From assembly GCA_000004985.1 (NCBI GenBank), contig GG738901.1: a DNA stretch of 64,000 nucleotides. The stretch is one strand, 5' to 3'. The notes beneath the pieces are model-generated. The model did no database searches and was not told where the DNA came from. It saw only the letters and a program-made list of their open reading frames with translations. The translations under genes and the position numbers were made by a program. Shown here one piece after another: positions 624-51,111 of the stretch (its first letter is position 1; every line of letters starts with the position of its first letter). The DNA comes from Naegleria gruberi (taxonomy: Eukaryota).

Positions 624-3600
624 ATGTTGAACAATAAATCTGAGCGAAGTGGTGATGAAAAAGAGGAGGATCTTGTGATTCAGAATCCCTCTAACTGTAA
701 ATGTAATAATCACAACAATGGTAAGCAGCATCTTGAAGGGACAAATTTAATGCAACAACCACAACCACTGTTGGATGATGATGTGAATGATATTCTTCAA
801 TTATTAACAATAGAAAGTTGCAGTGGAGGTTGTAGCTTTGATTGTCTTAAATTCGAAGAGAAGGAAGCAGTCGAAGAGGATACCTGTAATCCAATGTCGC
901 AACAACATCTTCCTTCCGATATCAAATCGGAACCAATTCTCCTACTGCTTACTGATAAGAAGGCAACATCAACAATGGATCACAACGTAAGTTATCATCA
1001 AACATGTAAATTAACGTGCCATTTGGGCGATTTGACTAATTCAGAAGTCGTATGCATCTAACAAACAAGGCGACAATTTTCATCATGAAAAAAGAACAGA
1101 CAATATCATCAACAAGAAGAACAAGGCTTCCTCATCATTAGGCAGTGCTTTTAAAGAAGATTTTGTAAATTTTGTTTCAGAATCCACAAGTTCCTCTTAC
1201 ATTCCGCAACAGCCATTCACAACATTATATTCGAAAAGAATGAAGGACGAAGAGATGGTGGAGAATAATCAATCTACTGTTAATGAAGATGGAATCAAGA
1301 CATCATCTGAAGCTAAACCAACACAATTTAACCACTCCTCACATCATCAAAGGCCTCATCATATTAACAAGGGTCTCGGAGAAGAACAACAATACAAATT
1401 TCCTTCATCTATTACACCACTTTCACTGGCCAATATTCATGCCAATGCATCGACTAACTTACTGCTAACTTCATCAACATTATTTAATTCTTCAAGTGAA
1501 TCACATGGTGGTGGAACCATTTCGAGAAGCTCCTCCAATACTTCAATGGATAGCTCCTCCTATTCACTCTTGAATAATCACCATCATCTAACCACATCTT
1601 CCTCACCCTCTGATGGTTTTCACTCAACTCTAAAATCCCTAGAAAATGTTCTCCCTCCATTCTTTACTCCATGCGTGCCACCTCATGCATCATTCAATTA
1701 CTATTCAGAACATTATTGGGGAGAACATCCCTTATCACTAACCTCCTTCTCTCCAATTCTTCATTATGAAAAGAAGTCATCTCTAACGATTATTTGTCGA
1801 TACACACCACAACAAACTAGGAATTCTCCAAGAAGGGAGAGACCTTCCTCTCAAAAAGAATTAATAGAGAATGAGATTTATTGTCTGAAAGTTTCACTGG
1901 ACAAACCATCCATTCCAAAGCTGGAAAGGGATGCAGAAATTTCTCGATTCTTGACCAATGAATTTTCTCAAGTGTTGGATCCAGCACAACAGGTTATTGT
2001 CAGTACTAAGGCCTATTTGTCTGATTATTTTATTCTCGTGAGGGAGTTTATTGATTGTGTTTCGTTGAGATCATTTATTGATAGATCGAAAACATATGCT
2101 AGAGCAGAACCAATTACTGATGAGAATTTTGAAACCTTAACAGATGATACTGTAACACTTCTCAATGAAGAACAACGAGTGAAAGAAAACATTACAATAT
2201 TGGAAAGTAATTTAACACTTGCTATTTCTATTTGTATGAGTGTTGCTCAACTGCATCACTCAAGAGTTTGTCATGCTGACATTAGGCCAGAAAATATAAT
2301 TGTAGAAGGACCTAAATGCAATATAAGATTGATTGATTTTGGAAAGAGTACATTCCTCCCTTTGGAGCATCCATTTTTATATACCGATAAAATTATTGGT
2401 AGTCAAATGTATTGTGCTCCAGAGGCAACAGGAAAGATTCCAAAACCAATAGGTTTCCACACTGATATATATTCACTTGGATTTGTTCTCTTTGAGTTAT
2501 TTTCCAAAGAACATCCATTTACCAAGTTTAGGACATTAGATTTCGTATTTCAACATTTGACTCAACAGCCAGAGTCCTTGTTTCAAAATCTAGCGAGAAG
2601 GTCTTTTATATCAGCCAATGAAGGAAACCTATTCACAGCTGCTACTAAAGCAATTTCAAGACTAATTACCAAAGCAATTCAAAAATCTATTGAGAAACGT
2701 TATTTGAGTATTTTTGGATTGAAACGAGATTTGGTCTACATACAGAATGCTATTCAACTAGAAGATATGGAAGCTCTTGAAAATTTTCAAGCTGGTATGA
2801 ATGATGTTCAAACAACTTTATCCATACCTTATGGTGTATATGGTAGAGAGGAAATTTTCAAAAAATTGGAACTGAAACTTGAAAATATGATGGAATCTAG
2901 TGAGCCAACGATTGTCCTTCTGGGGGGCTATAGTGGCATAGGTAAATCATGTATTGTTAAGGAGTTTAGGACAAGAAGTAAAACAGCAATACAATTCTTT
3001 GAGGCAAAATACGATCAACATATGAATGTACCTTACTATGCCATTATTTCCATATGTAAACAAATTATTGGCGACGTTCTTGGAGAATCTGAATCAGTGA
3101 TTAAGGATTTCAGATTCCAACTTGGTACACTTATCAATTCAGATCAATTAGAAATGTTGAGTGATGCAATTCCTGACATGTCATATTTATTTACAACTAA
3201 TGCAACCAAAAAGCATACCTCCCCATCAATGGGAGATCAGAATGGAGAGCGTATGAAGCTCTTTTCACAAGGAAGTAAGTAATATTTTGAATTTAACATT
3301 ATAACAATATTATATTGCTCAGTTATTCATCTCTTTAGTGTTTATACTCATTTAAAGAAAAAGAGGTTATGCATTTTCTTGGATGACTTGCAATGGACTG
3401 ATTTTGATAGCATGAAGCTATTGAAGGAAATTCTTGGAACTGGTTCTTGTGATACTGTTCCTCTTTTAATTATTGGAGCATATAGAAATAACGAAGTGGG
3501 AAAGGACCATCCTCTATTTTACTTTTTAGAAAATCTCAAACTTAAAGTGAACATTGAAGAAATTGAAGTTGTTGAGTTGACAGAAGATCAATCTAACATG

Positions 3601-7582: not shown

Positions 7583-10039
7583 ATGAAAAAACGACATTCA
7601 ACCTTTTCCACCACAATCAATCATCGAGATTTGATTAAATCATCTAATTTTAATTCATTATCTACTAGTAATATTCAATCATCATCATCACCAATATTGA
7701 GCACTACTTCTAGAAAAGGCTTCCGAGAACGACCACTCATCAAATTCATATTAAAACAACGTTCCAAACGATTGCAACAACAAGGCTCTAGTGAGTTTGC
7801 TGGTGCGGAAGTGGAAATTTTGAAGGCTTGTTGGAGAAAAATAGAGGAAGAGGAGATGAAGGACTATCGAGAAAATCTCTCGAATCGATTGGGGTTTTAT
7901 TTTGATGATGAGGAATTGTTGGCCATGTTCGGAAATCAATTGATGAAGGATGAAGAGGAACTACAGCAGAGGACGACAATGGATACTACCAACACTGAAC
8001 CAAGTTCGGCTGGTGGTGCTACTCTTGACAATTCTTCACTGAAGAGTGGTGACAGTGCTCGTTCATTGACAAGTTTCGGATCTGACTCGAAACTAAATTC
8101 GCCAATTAGTCCCAACCTCGACAAGAAGCATTTGCAGTCAACTTCATCGACCAAAAGCTCCACTTCATTTGCATCCTTCTCTGGTGCACCATCATCACTC
8201 ACACCAAGCCCAAACATTGAGGAGAACAAAAATCTTTCCTACCTCTACGATATTCATACTTTTCCTAGCAAGCTGAATCTGATACCAACCATGCATTATA
8301 ATGTGTTGGATGTTGTTGAGTTGTCCTCTGTACAGCAAATTGTAAATATAACAAGTCCTTCTTCGGAGATTGGGATACTTAAAGATTGTACAAATGATTC
8401 TTCTCCTACTGTAAATATTGAATCAACCACTTTTAGTCTCGAGATTTTAGATAGTTTTATTACTGTTGATTCTTTTGAAGATTTTTCAAATCCTTCATAT
8501 AATCCACTCAATATTAGACATTTATATTGTGATTATTGGTCCAACAAACTAGAATTCAAACAAAGGATCAGTAAATCTTCTCTTACTTCAAACAATAAGA
8601 AGGAAAATGAAAAATCAAAAAACTATATACCATTTGAAGAATTGGAAAAATGTAGAAATTGTACAGAACTCAAATTGAACAATAACAAGATTAGATCTCT
8701 AGATTCTAAACATTTTACCAATTTTGCACACTTGACAGAATTGAATCTATCTTCGAATAGAATGTCTAAAGCAAGACTGCCTGAGGATATTTTCTCACAT
8801 ATGCCACATTTGCAGAGGCTTTCTCTCGATTATATGGGTCTTAAGACTCTACCAAAATCAATTAACAAATTGGTAGAGCTTACCTACCTTTCACTTTCCT
8901 TTAACAAATTGAACACTTTCAACTTGCTACATGGAAAAGACAGACACTTGAATGATTTTTGGCCAAAATTGACCAATTTGGAGTACTTGAATTTGTCTGG
9001 AAATAGATTGAATAGATTTCCTTCAGAAATTTGTAATTGCAAATCATTGGAATTTTTGAGTTTGTCCAACAATAGAATAATTAACGAGATACCAAAGGAA
9101 ATTGAAAATCTCAAAAAATTAGCAATACTCTTCTTGAATGGAAACAAAGTTACTGCTCTTGATATTAATAGAAATTTGGAATTTTTAGAGAATTTGACCC
9201 ATTTGGAATTGGGTCACAATCCTAATATCCATGTGGTTCCACCTCCTGTTTACAATTTAACCAAATTAGAATCACTCTGTTTGAGCCATCTAACCATTAG
9301 TCATTTATCGGATGATATTGGAAAATTAAGAAATTTGACTCACTTGGATTTGTATGGCTCCAAACTAACTGGTCTTCCAAAGGGTATTTCACAGCTTATC
9401 AACCTTAGGAATTTGGATATGCGATATTGCAGAGGTATCAAGGAGTTCCCTATTGAATTGTTTGGTCAAAAAGTTTCAAGTAGCACTATCACTACTACCT
9501 CTCCAATGAAATCCCTTACTAGATTGAGTCTTAGCTATACAATGATAGAGAGCATTCCTGAGGATATTTCCTCTCTCCAGAGTTTACAAGCACTTTTGGT
9601 GAATGACTGTCCCTTGCTCGAAGAAATTAAGGGTATTGACAAGCTTGTCAATCTTGTAGAGTTTGACATCAGTCGTTGCATCTCCCTTGTTGAGCCTCCT
9701 TCTGATGTGTGTGAGAGAGGTCTTGCCCACATTAGAGGATATCTGAAAGAAAAGGACGATGGACCTTCTATTTTTTTAAAGTTTATTGGATCAGTATTTG
9801 GTGGAAATACCTCAAATAATTCCTCCACCAACAAGAAGAAACTACCTTCACCAATAGGCACAGAAAACAACCTCAAAGTGGAACACAATGAATTACTTGT
9901 TGCCTCACCAGTACCAAGCATTAATTCTGGAGATGATGATGGTGATAGTGATTCTGATGATGAGATTGGCGCATCTAAAAAGAAGAAACCAAGTCCAAGT
10001 GGCAGTACTGTCAAGTCATTATTTTCCTTTTGGAAATAA
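7583..10039 (+). CDS. Leucine-rich-repeat protein of 818 aa, with an S/T-rich N-terminus and an acidic C-terminus.
   Basis: Single long ORF. Tandem LxxLxLxxN repeats ('LTELNLSSNRMS', 'LEYLNLSGNRLNRFPSEI', 'LEFLSLSNNRIINEIPKEI', 'LTHLDLYGSKLTGLP'). ATG preceded by an A-run. Confidence 0.7.
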   Translation: MKKRHSTFSTTINHRDLIKSSNFNSLSTSNIQSSSSPILSTTSRKGFRERPLIKFILKQRSKRLQQQGSSEFAGAEVEILKACWRKIEEEEMKDYRENLSNRLGFYFDDEELLAMFGNQLMKDEEELQQRTTMDTTNTEPSSAGGATLDNSSLKSGDSARSLTSFGSDSKLNSPISPNLDKKHLQSTSSTKSSTSFASFSGAPSSLTPSPNIEENKNLSYLYDIHTFPSKLNLIPTMHYNVLDVVELSSVQQIVNITSPSSEIGILKDCTNDSSPTVNIESTTFSLEILDSFITVDSFEDFSNPSYNPLNIRHLYCDYWSNKLEFKQRISKSSLTSNNKKENEKSKNYIPFEELEKCRNCTELKLNNNKIRSLDSKHFTNFAHLTELNLSSNRMSKARLPEDIFSHMPHLQRLSLDYMGLKTLPKSINKLVELTYLSLSFNKLNTFNLLHGKDRHLNDFWPKLTNLEYLNLSGNRLNRFPSEICNCKSLEFLSLSNNRIINEIPKEIENLKKLAILFLNGNKVTALDINRNLEFLENLTHLELGHNPNIHVVPPPVYNLTKLESLCLSHLTISHLSDDIGKLRNLTHLDLYGSKLTGLPKGISQLINLRNLDMRYCRGIKEFPIELFGQKVSSSTITTTSPMKSLTRLSLSYTMIESIPEDISSLQSLQALLVNDCPLLEEIKGIDKLVNLVEFDISRCISLVEPPSDVCERGLAHIRGYLKEKDDGPSIFLKFIGSVFGGNTSNNSSTNKKKLPSPIGTENNLKVEHNELLVASPVPSINSGDDDGDSDSDDEIGASKKKKPSPSGSTVKSLFSFWK

Positions 10040-10137
10040 AGTGTTGAGTAAATAAAAACTGATGAAACATTTAGACATCACCAAATATAATGTCGTTTTT
10101 TCCCGTAAATGAGAAATATTTGCATTAAGAACAAGAT

Positions 10138-10209
10138 TCCCGTGTAGTCCAATGGCTAGGATACCTGGCTTTCACCCAGGAGGTCCGGGTTCAATTCCCG
10201 GCATGGGAG
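10138..10209 (+). tRNA. tRNA-Glu (anticodon UUC), 72 nt, no encoded CCA.
   Basis: Acceptor TCCCGTG / CATGGGA with one G-U. D-arm GTCCAATGGCTAGGAT. Anticodon stem CCTGG/CCAGG with loop CTTTCAC. T-arm CCGGGTTCAATTCCCGG. Followed by TCGTTTTTTATTTTT, a Pol III-type T-run. Confidence 0.85.
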
Positions 10210-10271
10210 AATCGTTTTTTATTTTTAAAAGTAATCTACAATGAAGTATTGTATTTTTTAAGCTTGATTCT

Positions 10272-19644: not shown

Positions 19645-21587
19645 ATGGTAGAAATAAAGAAGGAAAAGAAGTCAAAACAATCTCATCAATTACATGAGAA
19701 GCACAAGAAGCAACCACTCTTGGAGAAGACTTCTCAATCATCTGTGCCAAAGTATGAAGACATTGTAAAGCACAAGATCAGACCTTCCTATCCATCACCA
19801 ATTATTGAGAAGGGAAAGGATAAGAACTTTGAGGAATTGGTAAAACATTCACTTGATGAAATTCTCAAACTCAAACACAAAGAAAAGGCTCACAGTTCAT
19901 TCTTGGGAACACCTGAGAGAATACTCAATTGTGAAGAGGATATTGTTGAACAGAGATCCAAGGTAGAAATTCCTCAATCCTGTAAAACTCCACAGGAAGT
20001 TATCTCAAAAGTTTCTTCCTACTTTAATGGTGTGTTAGATAATGCAAGTCCAATCATGTTGGAGAATGTTCATCCTCCTTCAAATATTCCAGCAATTATT
20101 TCAACTCTATTTGCTTCGCTGTACAATGTTGGTATGGTACAAGATGAATTTTCATGGAATGTTGTGCTAACAGAGATTGAAACTATTGGAATGATGGCTA
20201 AATTGATTGGTTGGGATGCCAAGAAAGCTAATGGTGTATTTACCTTTGGTGGAACAGGAAATGAGTTGGTAAGTTTTAATGACTAATCTATTTCTAACAC
20301 CATGATGATTATCTAATACAGTACGGAATCAAAGTTGCCCTAACAAGAGCCTTGGGAATGGACTACCGTTACAAGGGTATTAGAGAAAATGTAAAGATTT
20401 TCGTTTCAGAAATTGGCCACTATTGTAAATTCAATGTTACAGATTGGCTAGGCATTGGTATGGACAATGTTGTTCCAATTAGTATTACAGAAGATAACTC
20501 TATGAATTATGATGATCTCTATGATAAATTATCCAAATCTGTCAAGAATGGTGAAAAGATTGCTGCCATTGTCTCAACTTGTGGTTCCACAGACCCATTC
20601 TCTGTTGATGATGTTTCAGAAATTGTAAAGATTAGAGATAGAATTGTTGAGGAGAATAATCTAGATTACAAACCATTTGTCTATGCTGATTCAGTCATTG
20701 GTTGGCCATGGCTCTTCTTTAAGACCTATAACTTTGAAGAGAATCCACTTCAAATCGAAGCTGACTATGTCTTGCCAGCAATCAAGTCAGTTCTCTCCAA
20801 AATGGAAAAGTTAGAATTGGCAGATGCTGTAGGATTAGATTTCCACAAGACTGGTTTCTGCCACTACATTTGTAGCTGTGTAATGTTCAAGGATGGAAAA
20901 GAGTTCGAAGAAAACCTATCCAGACCGAAAGACTTTGCTCAATATCTGTACAACTTTTCAGTTTACAAACCAGGAACATACACTCTCGAATGTTCAAGAG
21001 CTGCATCTTGTCTCGCTGCATTTAGTACCATTCACTTGTTTGGTGTTGAAGGTTATCAATCACTCATAGCTCACTTGATAAGTGTTCAACATGCTCTTCG
21101 AACAAACCTCACAGAACAGATGAAGAATGTGGCCATTGTTAATGATTTGGACAATGGTTTTGTTTCCTTGTTCAGAGTCTATCCACAAGGAGTTGATGCC
21201 AAGAAGGAATTTGAAAAGGAGTTGAATGGTCAACTCTCCGATGATGAAATTAACAAGTACAATGAATATCAAAAGCACATTGCCAATGTTCTCCATCTGA
21301 AGAGAGTACAAGAAGATGGTCCAGCTCTATCCTATACACGTTGCTTTAGAAAGAACAAGAATGGCTGTCCAATTTCTGCTCTCAAGGTCTTCCCTATGAG
21401 TCCATTCTGCTCAAAGGACATGATGATTAATCATGTTGTTCCCTTCATCAAGGATACTGTTGAGCAAGTAGGCTCACAAGAAGATATGGAAGAACACAAG
21501 AAGAAGGTTGAGAGTGAAGATCATCCAAAGTGGGCCTATCCAAGACATAGACACTTTGAGAATGTTACCCTCCACAATACATGGTGA
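19645..21587 (+). CDS. PLP-dependent group II (aromatic amino acid / glutamate type) decarboxylase of about 629 aa. Exons 19645..20268 and 20322..21587.
   Basis: The 53-nt intron 20269..20321 (GTAAGT..ATACAG) joins the two ORFs in frame. 'FTFGGTGNEL' + 'YGIKVAL' (spans the intron), 'STCGSTDPFSVDD' and the PLP-lysine motif 'GLDFHKTGFC'. Confidence 0.8.
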
Positions 21588-31789: not shown

Positions 31790-32722
31790 TCATTTGAATT
31801 TAATAATTCGTCCTGAACTAGCAATCAATAATTCGCCAGAACGTTCATCCAAACAAATTCCAGTAATTTTCCCATCCATTTTGTGTTCCTTTACAATTTC
31901 CAAATCGCTTCTTCTCAAAACTAAAACGCTATCAGTAAAGGTATTGGTAAGAATAATATATTGTCTTGATGAGTCATAAACTATTCCATAAAAGTCACTT
32001 GGTGGTAAAGGTTTTGATTTTGAGATGTTGACCTTTGGCATCCCTGTAGATTCGTGAGCAATTTGATAAATTCCAATTTCATTTCTAAATGGAATTATCA
32101 ATTCCTGATTTTCTAGAATTAAAAGTGAACATCCATCCAATTTTATCAATGGTTTGAAATCTTCAACCAAATCACCTGTTTCACAATTAATGAAAGTCAA
32201 ATAATCTGTGGTAGCTTCATTAATGACCAAAAAACGTTGTGAGCTTGTTGTGTAAATATCAATGCCATACATATCCATGGTAATTATTTTCTTATCCCAC
32301 ACCACACAATCTTGCCACCTATTTGTTCTCATCAATTTACTCAATTTAAACTTCACAACACCTGTCGGTCCAGTTGTGTATAGCTCATCATTATTCTCAT
32401 CCAGCAGTGGGACACAAGTCTTGAAAACAATCTGATGAATCAATAAATTACTACTCCTATCCACAAAATAAATCTTGTCATTGGTGAAAATTATAAAACA
32501 ATTATATTGGTATGAAATTATGATATCAACAAATTCTGCATCCACATTTTCCACCTTTTCCAAATCAAAAAATCCAGATTTAATAAAATTATAAGAGAAG
32601 GGAATTTTGGGATTTCTAAACATTTTCCGAAGCCATCCAAATTCTTTTATTGTAGAATTATCTTCATCATTATACAAGGCTTTGAAATCAATGAGAGAAA
32701 GTATCACACAATCATCTGACAT
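31790..32722 (-). CDS. Hypothetical protein of 310 aa.
   Basis: Intact ORF, predicted beta-rich. No motif I can name. Confidence 0.5.
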   Translation of the reverse strand: MSDDCVILSLIDFKALYNDEDNSTIKEFGWLRKMFRNPKIPFSYNFIKSGFFDLEKVENVDAEFVDIIISYQYNCFIIFTNDKIYFVDRSSNLLIHQIVFKTCVPLLDENNDELYTTGPTGVVKFKLSKLMRTNRWQDCVVWDKKIITMDMYGIDIYTTSSQRFLVINEATTDYLTFINCETGDLVEDFKPLIKLDGCSLLILENQELIIPFRNEIGIYQIAHESTGMPKVNISKSKPLPPSDFYGIVYDSSRQYIILTNTFTDSVLVLRRSDLEIVKEHKMDGKITGICLDERSGELLIASSGRIIKFK

Positions 32723-32943: not shown

Positions 32944-33023
32944 TGCAGAAGGTGGGATTTGAACCCACGAAGCTTGCGCAGTAGAACTTGAGTCTACCCC
33001 CTTTGACCACTCGGGAACCCTGC
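32944..33023 (-). tRNA. tRNA-Leu (anticodon CAA), class II with a long variable arm and no intron.
   Basis: Reverse complement reads GCAGGGTTCCCGAGTGGTCAAAGGGGGTAGACTCAAGTTCTACTGCGCAAGCTTCGTGGGTTCAAATCCCACCTTCTGCA. Anticodon stem GTAGA/TCTAC with loop CTCAAGT. T-arm GTGGGTTCAAATCCCAC. The acceptor has 2 G-U pairs and 1 mismatch, so the ends are uncertain by 1-2 nt. ORF 32824..33030 is a translation artefact of this tRNA. Confidence 0.65.
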
Positions 33024-38548: not shown

Positions 38549-38677
38549 ATCTTTATTCTATTTAAAGAAATAGAATATTCTAAGTAATATTATTATAATA
38601 CATTGGTTTTGAAGTGGGAAAGTTTGGCCATTTCCTAGATTAATGATACAATTTCATTTCTAACACTATTGAACTCT

Positions 38678-39632
38678 TTACAAGAGATGACATTTCTTCT
38701 TCTTTTCATCAGCTGAATTGTCATCAACCCAATCCTTAAACTTGTCTGGATTTCTGGCAATTCTTACAGCCGATTCAAAAACTTCCTTCACACCATATTG
38801 AGTTTTAGCACTACATTCATGATAACGATGAATCTTCCAATCCTTTCTCTTCTTTTCAGCTTCATCTTTTGTAATAGGTGGTCCATCCTTACTCTTTTGC
38901 ATTTCTGGAACTTCTCTCAAATCAACTTTTGTTCCAACTAATAGGATAGGGACCCCAGGAGCATAATGTGTAATTTCTGGAAGCCACCTCACTTGAATAT
39001 TATCAAAAGAGCTTCTGTGGACAATTGAAAAACAGAGAAGGAAAATATTTGTATCTGGATAAGAGAGAGGTCGTAAACGATCATAACTTTTTTTGTGTGA
39101 ATAAATTTCATTGGAAATTATGAGAGGACAACTTACTCTGAAATTGTGTGAGAATTATCATGTATGAATATAATATGTTGATAGATTTAAATATTTACCT
39201 TCCTAATAATATTGATTGATAATTGATGAAAATGATCAGTGATTAGAATATAAATTATATTGTAAATTACTTACTTGTCCTGCTGTATCCCATAAATCTA
39301 TTGTTTGTACTTTAGAATCAACTACCATGTTTGTGCTGTAATTATCAAAGACAGTTGGCACTAAAGATTATTGATTATCCGAAATTACAAGACGAAACAT
39401 ATCAAGATCCAATCATAATAATAATAATAACAACATTCCAACAAGATAAATTTTGTATGATGACAATAATATTCGAAATTGATGACAATAACATGATATC
39501 AATCAACTCTTTCCAATACAAAAAAAACCTACCGTAATCTTCAGGAAACTTATCCTCTACAAAACTAACCAGTAAACAAGTTTTTCCGACAGCACCATCT
39601 CCACAAACTACACATTTTACAGCCTTGTCCAT
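38678..39632 (-). CDS. Rho/Rac-family small GTPase of 199 aa with a CAAX tail. Proposed exons 39533..39632, 39275..39360, 39199..39202 (4 nt), 39137 (1 nt) and 38678..39086.
   Basis: '[16 protein letters not shown]' (G1), 'VPTVFDNYS', 'WDTAGQ' + '[12 protein letters not shown]', 'LVGTKVDLR', 'ECSAK', C-terminal 'KKKKCHLL'. The exons sum to 600 nt = 200 codons. The two micro-exons are inferred because they are the only way to recover 'GQEDYD' (see findings). Confidence 0.78.
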
Positions 39633-49716: not shown

Positions 49717-51111
49717 ATGTTTGAAAAACTATTGGGCCGTTTCAGAAGGAACTCTAAAAATTCATCTCCATCATCAAAACCACAAATGAAACCTCTTGAT
49801 TTTGATGATGACGATGATTATGATGAAGAGGGTGAATTAAATTATAAATGTTCCTCAGAGGAAATTCTGGTCATAAAATTGACCTCCGATGAGGCTAGAA
49901 AGTACAGAGATTTGATGAGGATGGAAGATATTAATCATTCGATCACCATGGGGGGTTATTTGCGTTGGAGGGATATTGTGAGTTGTATGAGAGTTTGTAA
50001 GGAATGGAAAGAAATTATTGATTGCAATGCGGCTTATAATATGTTCCTTCAAAAGGTATTGAAAAGCTTGGAAGATTGTTATCCAGTTTGTGTGAACTTG
50101 TCTGGAAATATGAAAAGAAGTCACGTCGTTGGAAAAGGGTTGAAAAGTTTACAAGAGTTTGTGAGCTTTTCCAAATATTCAATGAGATGGCTTGAATCAT
50201 CCCGTTTTGGTTACAACAATGGAATAACACAAAGCTCAACCACAATGTTGTTGGATTTCATGTCAATAGATCCAAAGAAAATAGGACACAAGCAATTTCA
50301 TGAGGACATCAAAGTAATTATTCCAGATCAACTTGCAGAAAAAGATCCATGGTACTCTCTCACTTCCCCTTTATGGAATATTGACGAAGACGAAAGCTTT
50401 GGCATATTTATGGCATTTCAATCCAGATTTCAGTATAGGTTTTCTTTCATTTCTCTAGCTTACCTTAGAGGAGAGTTTTATAAAGCTATTCCACAATCAA
50501 AAGAAATAACCAAGAATATCTCCGTCAAAGGTGAATACGAAGTTGACGAACCAGAGACGCCAATAGGAAGATATAGAGCCAGCTCAAGCAAAGAATTTAG
50601 TGCTAGCTCCGTGTCTCAATTTATTTTGGAAGAATTGACTGAAGATTTTGCGCATGACAGATTTTATGATGAAGAGGAAACAGTAGAGGCAGAAGCAAAG
50701 GTAACTTTGGAATTCAATTCTGGTTTGAGAAAGATGCTGTTCAAGATATGGAAGTCTGGGTTGCTGAACTATGCACCAGTGAGAAATTATGTATTCCAAT
50801 TGCTCTACTTGTTGGAAAACCACAAAATATATGACTTTCATAGATTCCATTTTCACGATAATATGAAGGATACTAACGTGTCTGAAACAGTTCAAGCTTT
50901 CCTTTCTTCTGAAAAAGGAGATTCTGAAACTTTCTATACCTATCTAGATGTTAAGAAACCTTGTTCAGGTTACTCTGGAGGTCAATCAAACACTTTTTAT
51001 TTTGTTGCTCTCACACTGAAACACTCACCAACACATGCTGATGAATGTGAATTTGAATATGCATTGTTGCAATATTACCATTATACTGTTAGAGGAATGG
51101 CTTTAAGTTAA
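49717..51111 (+). CDS. Hypothetical protein of 464 aa with an F-box-like segment.
   Basis: Acidic N-terminus. 'WRDIVSCMRVCKEWKEIIDC' is F-box-like. A-run before the ATG. Confidence 0.5.
   Translation: MFEKLLGRFRRNSKNSSPSSKPQMKPLDFDDDDDYDEEGELNYKCSSEEILVIKLTSDEARKYRDLMRMEDINHSITMGGYLRWRDIVSCMRVCKEWKEIIDCNAAYNMFLQKVLKSLEDCYPVCVNLSGNMKRSHVVGKGLKSLQEFVSFSKYSMRWLESSRFGYNNGITQSSTTMLLDFMSIDPKKIGHKQFHEDIKVIIPDQLAEKDPWYSLTSPLWNIDEDESFGIFMAFQSRFQYRFSFISLAYLRGEFYKAIPQSKEITKNISVKGEYEVDEPETPIGRYRASSSKEFSASSVSQFILEELTEDFAHDRFYDEEETVEAEAKVTLEFNSGLRKMLFKIWKSGLLNYAPVRNYVFQLLYLLENHKIYDFHRFHFHDNMKDTNVSETVQAFLSSEKGDSETFYTYLDVKKPCSGYSGGQSNTFYFVALTLKHSPTHADECEFEYALLQYYHYTVRGMALS

Follow-up and report, generated by a model that had tools for sequence, protein, structure and literature searches.

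A Rho/Rac GTPase gene of Naegleria gruberi with switch II codons that appear to be split by three short introns and two exons of 4 and 1 nucleotides

In the heterolobosean amoeba Naegleria gruberi, a gene for a Rho/Rac/Cdc42-type GTPase raises the question whether coding exons of only 4 and 1 nucleotides (nt) can lie next to each other within the codons of a functional motif and, if so, how they would be spliced and how they came about. The gene is encoded on the minus strand of a 64,000-nt stretch of contig GG738901.1 (assembly GCA_000004985.1), which was analyzed as a whole and is referred to here as the window. Between the exon that ends with the codons for WDTAGQ and the exon that begins with the codons for YDR lies a gap of 188 nt, and joining these two exons directly, with both small pieces omitted, yields GQL followed by a stop codon. 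The comparisons reported here make it very probable that this is a functional Rho/Rac GTPase gene whose switch II Q-E-D-Y codons are split by three short GT-AG introns, leaving two constitutive ultra-short exons, GAAG and A. We infer from the sequence that both pieces are included in the N. gruberi mRNA.

The Rho/Rac gene and its predicted micro-exons

Homology of the predicted product to Rho/Rac/Cdc42 GTPases extends over its full length; DTAGQEDYDRLRP is intact, and the C-terminal sequence, KKKKCHLL, contains a CAAX box. The product matches the Pfam family Ras (PF00071) over residues 6-173 with an E-value of 2.4e-50, and matches human CDC42 at 2e-65 and Rac1 likewise at approximately 1e-65; both the P-loop, GDGAVGKT, and the G3/switch II segment, DTAGQEDYDRLRP, are identical to those of CDC42. 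Assignment to the Rho family is based on the segment from DLRE to ECSA, which aligns with the insert region of CDC42, and on the CAAX box at the C-terminus, for which prenylation is predicted. The closest relatives by amino acid identity are the protein encoded by a contig from the Logan collection (90%), FDP41_011163 of N. fowleri (84%) and ABK040_012000 of Willaertia magna (74%), and C9374_000362 of N. lovaniensis is found in the 90%-identity cluster of the N. fowleri orthologue. While the protein thus resembles Rho/Rac/Cdc42 GTPases in its full-length homology, identical switch II, Rho-type insert region and CAAX box (CHLL), it belongs to a divergent orthologue group specific to Naegleria and Willaertia, with about 50-60% identity to the Rac and Cdc42 proteins of other eukaryotes.

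All boundaries of the gene were read in the reverse complement of window positions 39900-38300, and the exon joins were checked by translation. A model with five exons of 100, 86, 4, 1 and 409 nt (Table 1) gives a stop-free coding sequence of exactly 600 nt, encoding 199 amino acids. The 3' end of exon 2, GCAGGACAA at 39275, is followed by the donor GTAAGT. The first predicted micro-exon, GAAG, is preceded by the acceptor ATTATTAG and followed by the donor GTAAAT, and exon 5 opens with TTATGATCGT at 39086, preceded by AAAAAAAG. A micro-exon is defined here as an internal coding segment of at most 15 nt with an AG before it and a GT after it, and both pieces have this arrangement (TTAG/GAAG/GTAAAT and TTCAG/A/GTAAGT). 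The predicted junction across both micro-exons reads GGACAAGAAGATTATGAT, and the spliced 36-mer GATACAGCAGGACAAGAAGATTATGATCGTTTACGA has no copy in the genomic window.

Table 1. Coordinates of the predicted exons and introns of the Rho/Rac gene in the window
Feature	Position	Strand	Length (nt)	Description
Exon 1	39533..39632	-	100	ATG at 39632; ends in phase 1
Intron 1	39361..39532	-	172	GTAGGT...TTTAG; position conserved in Naegleria and Willaertia
Exon 2	39275..39360	-	86	Phase 0; ends TGG GAT ACA GCA GGA CAA (WDTAGQ)
Intron A	39203..39274	-	72	GTAAGT...TATTAG; after coding nt 186
Predicted micro-exon 1 (GAAG)	39199..39202	-	4	Glu codon GAA and first base of the Asp codon
Intron B	39138..39198	-	61	GTAAAT...TTTCAG; after coding nt 190
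Predicted micro-exon 2 (A)	39137	-	1	Second base of the Asp codon GAT; flanks TTTCAG and GTAAGT
Intron C	39087..39136	-	50	GTAAGTTGT...TTCACACAAAAAAAG (GTAAGT...AAAAAG); after coding nt 191, phase 2
Exon 5	38678..39086	-	409	Includes TAA stop at 38680-38678; T TAT GAT CGT ... CHLL

A first-pass annotation of the window had proposed the same arrangement. Its coordinates and sequence strings were all found to be correct, base for base, on the minus strand, and the intron lengths and the 600-nt coding sequence that it gave were reproduced by joining and translation. Its description of the three introns as belonging to the normal size class of the window also holds, as most of the other introns inferred for it have lengths of 44-64 nt, with one of 179 nt. 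The reading with three introns and two micro-exons is itself supported as the sole canonical parse of the gap that restores switch II, by a related 600-nt open reading frame (ORF) without insertions or deletions and by selection on the downstream frame, all described below, while the inclusion of both pieces in the mRNA stands as a prediction. The donors of the other introns inferred in the window are GTAAGT in six cases, GTAGGT in two and GTAAAT in one, and their acceptors are often pyrimidine-poor (e.g., AAAAG). In several of these introns, a CTAAY-like motif was noted by eye 6-20 nt before the 3' splice site. A scan of the window for other genes with a single micro-exon gave nothing convincing, and reversed-sequence controls gave nothing.

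To define the possible structures of the 188-nt gap, parses were enumerated with up to three GT..AG introns of at least 30 nt each and with internal exons of 1-30 nt. Among the 14 parses found, 4 were in frame and free of stop codons, and only one, which uses GAAG and A, restored QEDYD; this was also the sole parse with consensus hexamers at every donor. The proposal that the conserved Rho segment is recovered solely if both pieces are exonic is therefore borne out by the enumeration. As chance controls, parses that leave GARGA were counted in 200,000 Markov-simulated gaps of equal composition and in 18,232 real 188-nt pieces of the window. Such parses were found at a rate of 2.3e-4 in the simulated gaps and 3.7e-3 in the real pieces; when donors were required to begin with GTA, the rates were 7e-5 and 5e-4, respectively. 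Moreover, the motif formed by YAG, 0 to 6 nt and a consensus donor occurs 28 times in 128 kb (both strands), and 3 of these 28 occurrences are found within approximately 145 nt at the Rho locus, where they represent the flanks of the two micro-exons and the end of exon 2. The GAAG/A arrangement is thus more than a chance occurrence.

A mature counterpart of the gene appears to be represented by a 974-nt Logan contig, L001 (SRR26109364), which carries an uninterrupted 600-nt ORF with 90% amino acid and 84.5% nucleotide identity to the model and no insertions or deletions, and which reads CAAGAAGATTAT at switch II (GGT CAA GAA GAT TAT GAT). This contig lacks the phase-1 intron at nt 100, although all four heterolobosean genomes examined carry that intron. 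In addition, L001 positions 869-934 and window positions 38575-38639 (minus strand) share a block of approximately 65 nt in the 3' untranslated region (UTR), TCTAGGAAATGG.CCAAACTTTCC...AATGTATTATAATAATA, with a local alignment score of 65; in the window, this block sits between the stop codons of two convergent genes (38548 and 38678). Because L001 is without the conserved intron and has the 3' block, it was taken to be an mRNA, apparently from the orthologous gene of a relative, which is probably another Naegleria, and the block supports both the orthology and the mRNA reading of the contig. The 3' UTR block may represent a shared 3'-end or regulatory element. It has been kept despite near-saturated synonymous sites (dS about 0.8).

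Comparison with L001 gave a ratio of nonsynonymous to synonymous substitution rates (dN/dS) of 0.085 for the whole coding sequence and of 0.056 and 0.10 for the parts before and after the site, respectively, at a dS of about 0.8 (0.79 downstream). The downstream differences fall on codon positions 1, 2 and 3 in the numbers 16, 7 and 42, and the 136 codons of exon 5 contain no stop, insertion or deletion. The reading frame after the gap has been under purifying selection, which would not be expected of a frameshifted gene.

The genomic arrangement itself was found a second time in an ENA metagenome contig from a separate project, L010 (ERZ929261, PRJEB11402). Compared to window positions 39220-38792, this contig has one mismatch in 429 nt, which is synonymous, and it is identical over 134 of 134 nt from 39220 to 39087, a segment in which the two micro-exons and introns B and C are preceded by 18 nt from the 3' end of intron A. 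The last 73 nt of L010 (430-502) diverge completely beyond window position 38792 and match nowhere in the window; this tail stems either from a metagenome assembly that is chimeric or from another N. gruberi-like strain with a structural variant. ENA metagenome proteins with at least 90% identity to the N. gruberi proteins P0122, P0125 and P0128, encoded at window positions 7583-10039, 31790-32722 and 49717-51111, were also found, which shows that public environmental data sets include N. gruberi-like organisms. Searches for orthologous loci in metagenomes found none with a degenerate DNA pattern and only distant GTPases with a protein-guided scan.

Proposed splicing and alternative explanations

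Most introns of Naegleria are only about 45-70 nt long, and pairing of splice sites therefore probably takes place across the intron, i.e., by intron definition. The lengths, donors and often pyrimidine-poor acceptors of the other introns in the window would fit such a system. Under intron definition, micro-exons of 1 and 4 nt would need no recognition as exons. All six splice sites at the locus, three GT and three AG, are intact in the primary sequence. The donors GTAAGT, GTAAAT and GTAAGT match the consensus from +1 to +6, which could compensate for missing exonic contacts, as pairing with U1 would be almost wholly intronic. The acceptor of intron A and the donor of intron B are 4 nt apart, and the acceptor of intron B and the donor of intron C are 1 nt apart, so that complexes on neighbouring introns would probably be mutually exclusive. 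Introns A, B and C would then be removed sequentially, in a manner that resembles recursive splicing but with 4 and 1 nt kept. Any order of removal would leave the remaining sites unchanged; with intron B removed, the donor of intron C would stand in the context GAAGA/GTAAGT, as it does in N. fowleri. An RNA structure that brings the sites together was considered and rejected, since the predicted fold was no more stable than those of shuffled sequences (z = +1.15). A search of the introns against Rfam for known RNA families gave one snoRNA-like match, in intron 1, which was below threshold (29.8 bits vs. a gathering score of 51).

Several points weigh against a functional gene with two constitutive micro-exons spliced in this way. 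The exact 199-amino acid product was not found in a collection of 15 billion proteins that includes transcript assemblies and the proteome of N. gruberi NEG-M. L001 gives a mature sequence only and does not show where introns lie in the gene of its own species. The selection measured against L001 is averaged over two lineages and is compatible with a very recent inactivation. The branch-point regions of introns A, B and C are without the CTAAY-like motif seen by eye near the 3' ends of several introns in the window. Finally, the mutual exclusion of adjoining complexes, on which the removal order and the steric argument depend, comes from general knowledge of spliceosome footprints.

One further possibility, which would refine a functional gene with two micro-exons and does not exclude it, is that the micro-exons act as a switch, such that skipping of one or both competes with productive splicing and gives a frameshifted mRNA that is degraded, by which the amount of GTPase would be tuned, e.g., as amoebae differentiate into flagellates. 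Skipping of any micro-exon would necessarily give a premature stop, and plant VPS55 is known to have isoforms with and without its 1-nt exon (PMC8831610). The strong consensus donors of the N. gruberi gene argue for constitutive use instead. Moreover, in organisms with short introns, intron retention predominates and exons are seldom skipped. We consider such a switch improbable.

Another explanation is that the locus is a recent pseudogene, in which the 188 nt represent one intron or are spliced unproductively, the mRNA is frameshifted after GQ and the flanks of GAAG and A are coincidental. This would be in line with the immediate break of the frame when the two pieces are left out and with the absence of the product from the protein collections searched. 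By contrast, the 136 intact codons of exon 5, the downstream dN/dS of 0.10 at a dS of 0.79 and the concentration of differences at third positions (16/7/42) all argue for a frame that has been in use. The coincidence required by a pseudogene has a probability of about 1e-4 to 4e-3, all three donors are consensus hexamers, and a second N. gruberi-like sample (L010) has the region unchanged, with its one difference in the gene, a synonymous one, located elsewhere. A pseudogene is therefore judged to be quite unlikely.

The gap could also contain two introns and a different small exon, namely a 5-nt exon AGTAA between introns of 137 and 46 nt, which would give DTAGQSNYDRLR, or one of the options with TT or AGTAAGTT. 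These are the sole other GT..AG parses that are in frame and free of stop codons, and the three of them yield QSNYD, QSKFYD and QFYD in place of QEDYD. They need the non-consensus donors GTTGTC or GTCCTC, one needs an AGTAAG acceptor, and the consensus sites that lie between would have to be ignored. The E and D of switch II, at which L001, N. fowleri, N. lovaniensis, Willaertia and human CDC42 all agree, would be replaced as well. The chance that one of these parses is correct seems very slim.

A sequencing or assembly error that hides one ordinary intron and an intact GAAGA, which the first-pass annotation had named as a possible refutation and for which nothing speaks beyond the prior suspicion that attaches to unusual structures, is refuted by the independent contig L010, in which one base differs over 429 nt and none over the 134 nt that run from the last part of intron A through both micro-exons and intron B to the end of intron C, and has next to no probability left.

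Intron positions across Heterolobosea

A comparison with the intron positions of orthologous genes, as suggested in the first-pass annotation, was carried out after rebuilding the exon chains of N. fowleri, N. lovaniensis and Willaertia so that they reproduced the annotated proteins exactly. The N. fowleri gene has exons of 100, 91 and 421 nt and introns of 253 and 498 nt, and that of N. lovaniensis has exons of 100, 91 and 424 nt and introns of 260 and 373 nt. Both genes have the same 100-nt exon 1 and phase-1 intron position as N. gruberi; the Willaertia counterpart of this intron is found at nt 106. At the QED site, both carry a single intron, after nt 191 and in phase 2, which is the position of N. 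gruberi intron C; in N. fowleri, the exon sequence GGACAAGAAGA is followed by the donor GTAAGT. The W. magna gene has five exons, with introns after nt 52, 106, 229 and 299, and no intron at the QED site. By comparison, the N. gruberi gene has three introns at this site, after nt 186, 190 and 191.

Intron C and the N. lovaniensis intron also share sequence at both ends. The N. lovaniensis intron starts with GTAAGTTGT and ends with CAATGAATTCACACAG, while intron C starts with GTAAGTTGT and ends with CAATGAAATTTATTCACACAAAAAAAG, so that GTAAGTTGT...CAATGAA..TTCACACA..AG is common to both. Because position, phase and the end sequences of the N. lovaniensis intron agree, intron C is the orthologue of the single intron in N. 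fowleri and N. lovaniensis, shrunk to 50 nt, and the conserved ends of the shortened intron point to internal shrinkage. The N. gruberi introns are much shorter than their orthologues in N. fowleri and N. lovaniensis at both shared positions (50 nt vs. 498 and 373 nt, and 172 nt vs. 253 and 260 nt, respectively).

Introns A and B have no counterpart in the N. fowleri, N. lovaniensis and Willaertia genomes and were thus seen in N. gruberi alone. With Willaertia as outgroup, the most parsimonious history would be a gain of intron C in the Naegleria stem, and later gains of introns A and B in the lineage of N. gruberi. Alternatively, introns A and B may have been lost in the lineage of N. fowleri and N. 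lovaniensis. The possibility that introns A and B were carved from a long ancestral intron was rejected, since both ends shared with N. lovaniensis lie in intron C; introns A and B would therefore have been inserted into what were the final 5 nt of exon 2.

The idea that introns A and B arose as copies of adjacent introns was likewise rejected as unsupported, because their similarity is no higher than that among unrelated introns of the window. Local alignments among introns A, B, C and intron 1 were nominally significant when compared to shuffled sequences and GC-matched window segments (p about 0.01 for A and B, and about 0.015 for A and C). The alignment of A and B scores 27, and that of B with an unrelated window intron at 3275-3322 scores 28; equal scores among unrelated introns indicate that the similarity of introns A, B and C reflects general intron composition. 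Short introns of unrelated genes (3275-3322 and 20269-20321, both on the plus strand, and others) align with one another as well as the three adjacent Rho introns do, with scores of 24-28. Such scores could be due simply to a high AT content or to an internal motif that the introns have in common. No copy of introns A, B and C or of intron 1 longer than approximately 15 nt was found elsewhere in the window, which was searched for members of an introner family, and Tandem Repeats Finder (TRF) found no tandem repeat at the locus apart from an (AAT)n run. This run is an (AAT)6.7 microsatellite within intron 1, at 39411-39430.

The presence of two insertions at most 4 nt apart and adjoining an existing intron is suggestive of a local hot spot, although this is speculation. 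In its full form, the proposal is that the three introns in 5 nt represent two recent gains adjoining an old intron and that new introns insert preferentially near a splice junction that is already there; we regard this as doubtful. If it were true, an excised intron might, for example, be reverse-spliced near the junction on which the spliceosome is located, and cases of "intron sliding", in which the introns of different species lie 1-5 nt apart, could represent separate insertions that are able to coexist in one gene. In that case, 1-nt exons would also be routine for the Naegleria spliceosome, and more genes of this type would be missing from the annotation. Independently of this proposal, the presence of an old intron beside two lineage-specific ones, at positions 186, 190 and 191, could provide a compact natural test case for how and where introns are gained.

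Comparison with known systems and annotation status

Exons of this size are rare but known from plants and fungi, and no new kind of mechanism is involved. In plants, the APC11 and VPS55 genes contain 1-nt exons that have been verified by reverse transcription PCR (RT-PCR) and RNA-seq, are conserved across land plants and were missed by annotation (PMC4674806, PMC8831610); the 1-nt exon of APC11 is correctly spliced even in a heterologous species (PMC4674806). Similarly, the annotation of the fungus Coprinopsis cinerea from long reads includes 13 exons of 1 nt, 57 of 2 nt and 27 of 3 nt (PMC12230235). The statement in the first-pass annotation that exons of 1-4 nt normally need special splicing mechanisms was therefore too strong, given APC11 (PMC4674806) and C. 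cinerea (PMC12230235).

The N. gruberi gene shares with plant APC11 and VPS55 a single coding base between GT-AG introns, a strong GTRAGT donor after this exon, a break of the frame if the exon is omitted and, apparently, the absence of the exon from the genome annotation. Unlike the plant exons, the 1-nt exon of N. gruberi is predicted, is found in one lineage only and adjoins a second micro-exon of 4 nt, and the gene is that of a heterolobosean amoeba whose introns are very few and about 50-70 nt long. C. cinerea resembles N. gruberi as an organism with short introns and exons of 1-3 nt whose omission creates premature stops. However, it is a fungus with intron-rich genes and direct long-read evidence, and the comparison was made by counts of exon sizes. 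Adjacent micro-exons, of 5 and 12 nt, have been validated by RT-PCR and sequencing in the rice gene Os08t0562700 (PMC8831610). As in N. gruberi, two consecutive micro-exons are separated by a normal intron and one of them was unannotated, but the rice exons are larger and have been validated experimentally.

Zero-nucleotide recursive splice sites of Drosophila and vertebrates retain nothing and are located in introns of more than 10 kb (reviewed in PMC13149111). They resemble the N. gruberi locus in that a 3' splice site adjoins a 5' splice site, implying stepwise removal of consecutive intron segments; in contrast to these sites, the N. gruberi locus keeps 4 and 1 essential coding nt, and its introns are 50-72 nt long. 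The locus was therefore not classified as a zero-nucleotide recursive splice site, as the retained 4 and 1 nt are essential for the frame and the whole span is 188 nt. A stwintron was also rejected, since three donors and three acceptors are intact in series and no nested parse is required. Of the papers listed in a literature search that combined Naegleria with micro-exon terms, none brought the two together. What would be particular to this locus, judging from its predicted structure, is the tandem pair of 4 and 1 nt, the presence of three introns within 5 coding nt, the intron-poor host from the Discoba and the combination of an old intron with new ones. If confirmed by RNA, the structure would extend 1-nt exons to the Discoba, a deep lineage far from plants and fungi, and would indicate that the core spliceosome could join exons with essentially no exonic sequence when introns are short and donors are strong.

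The Rho/Rac gene appears to be unannotated or badly mis-annotated in the reference proteome of N. gruberi NEG-M. Homology searches with the full protein, with exons 1 and 2 and with exon 5 returned no N. gruberi gene model, and exact look-ups of neighbouring genes returned no NEG-M locus with gene calls. That the window itself belongs to strain NEG-M is shown by two of its long ORFs, which match the NEG-M proteins XP_002671954 and XP_002671957 exactly, and four more ORFs likewise have exact matches to NEG-M proteins. The orthologues in N. fowleri, N. lovaniensis and Willaertia are all annotated. The apparent lack of an annotation in N. gruberi is likely due to the micro-exons, as exons of 4 and 1 nt are hard for gene finders, and the same blind spot may hide other Naegleria genes, including genes of the pathogen N. 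fowleri. Elsewhere in the window, genes for tRNA-Glu(TTC), at 10137-10210 on the plus strand, and tRNA-Leu(CAA), at 32944-33023 on the minus strand, are found between protein-coding genes.

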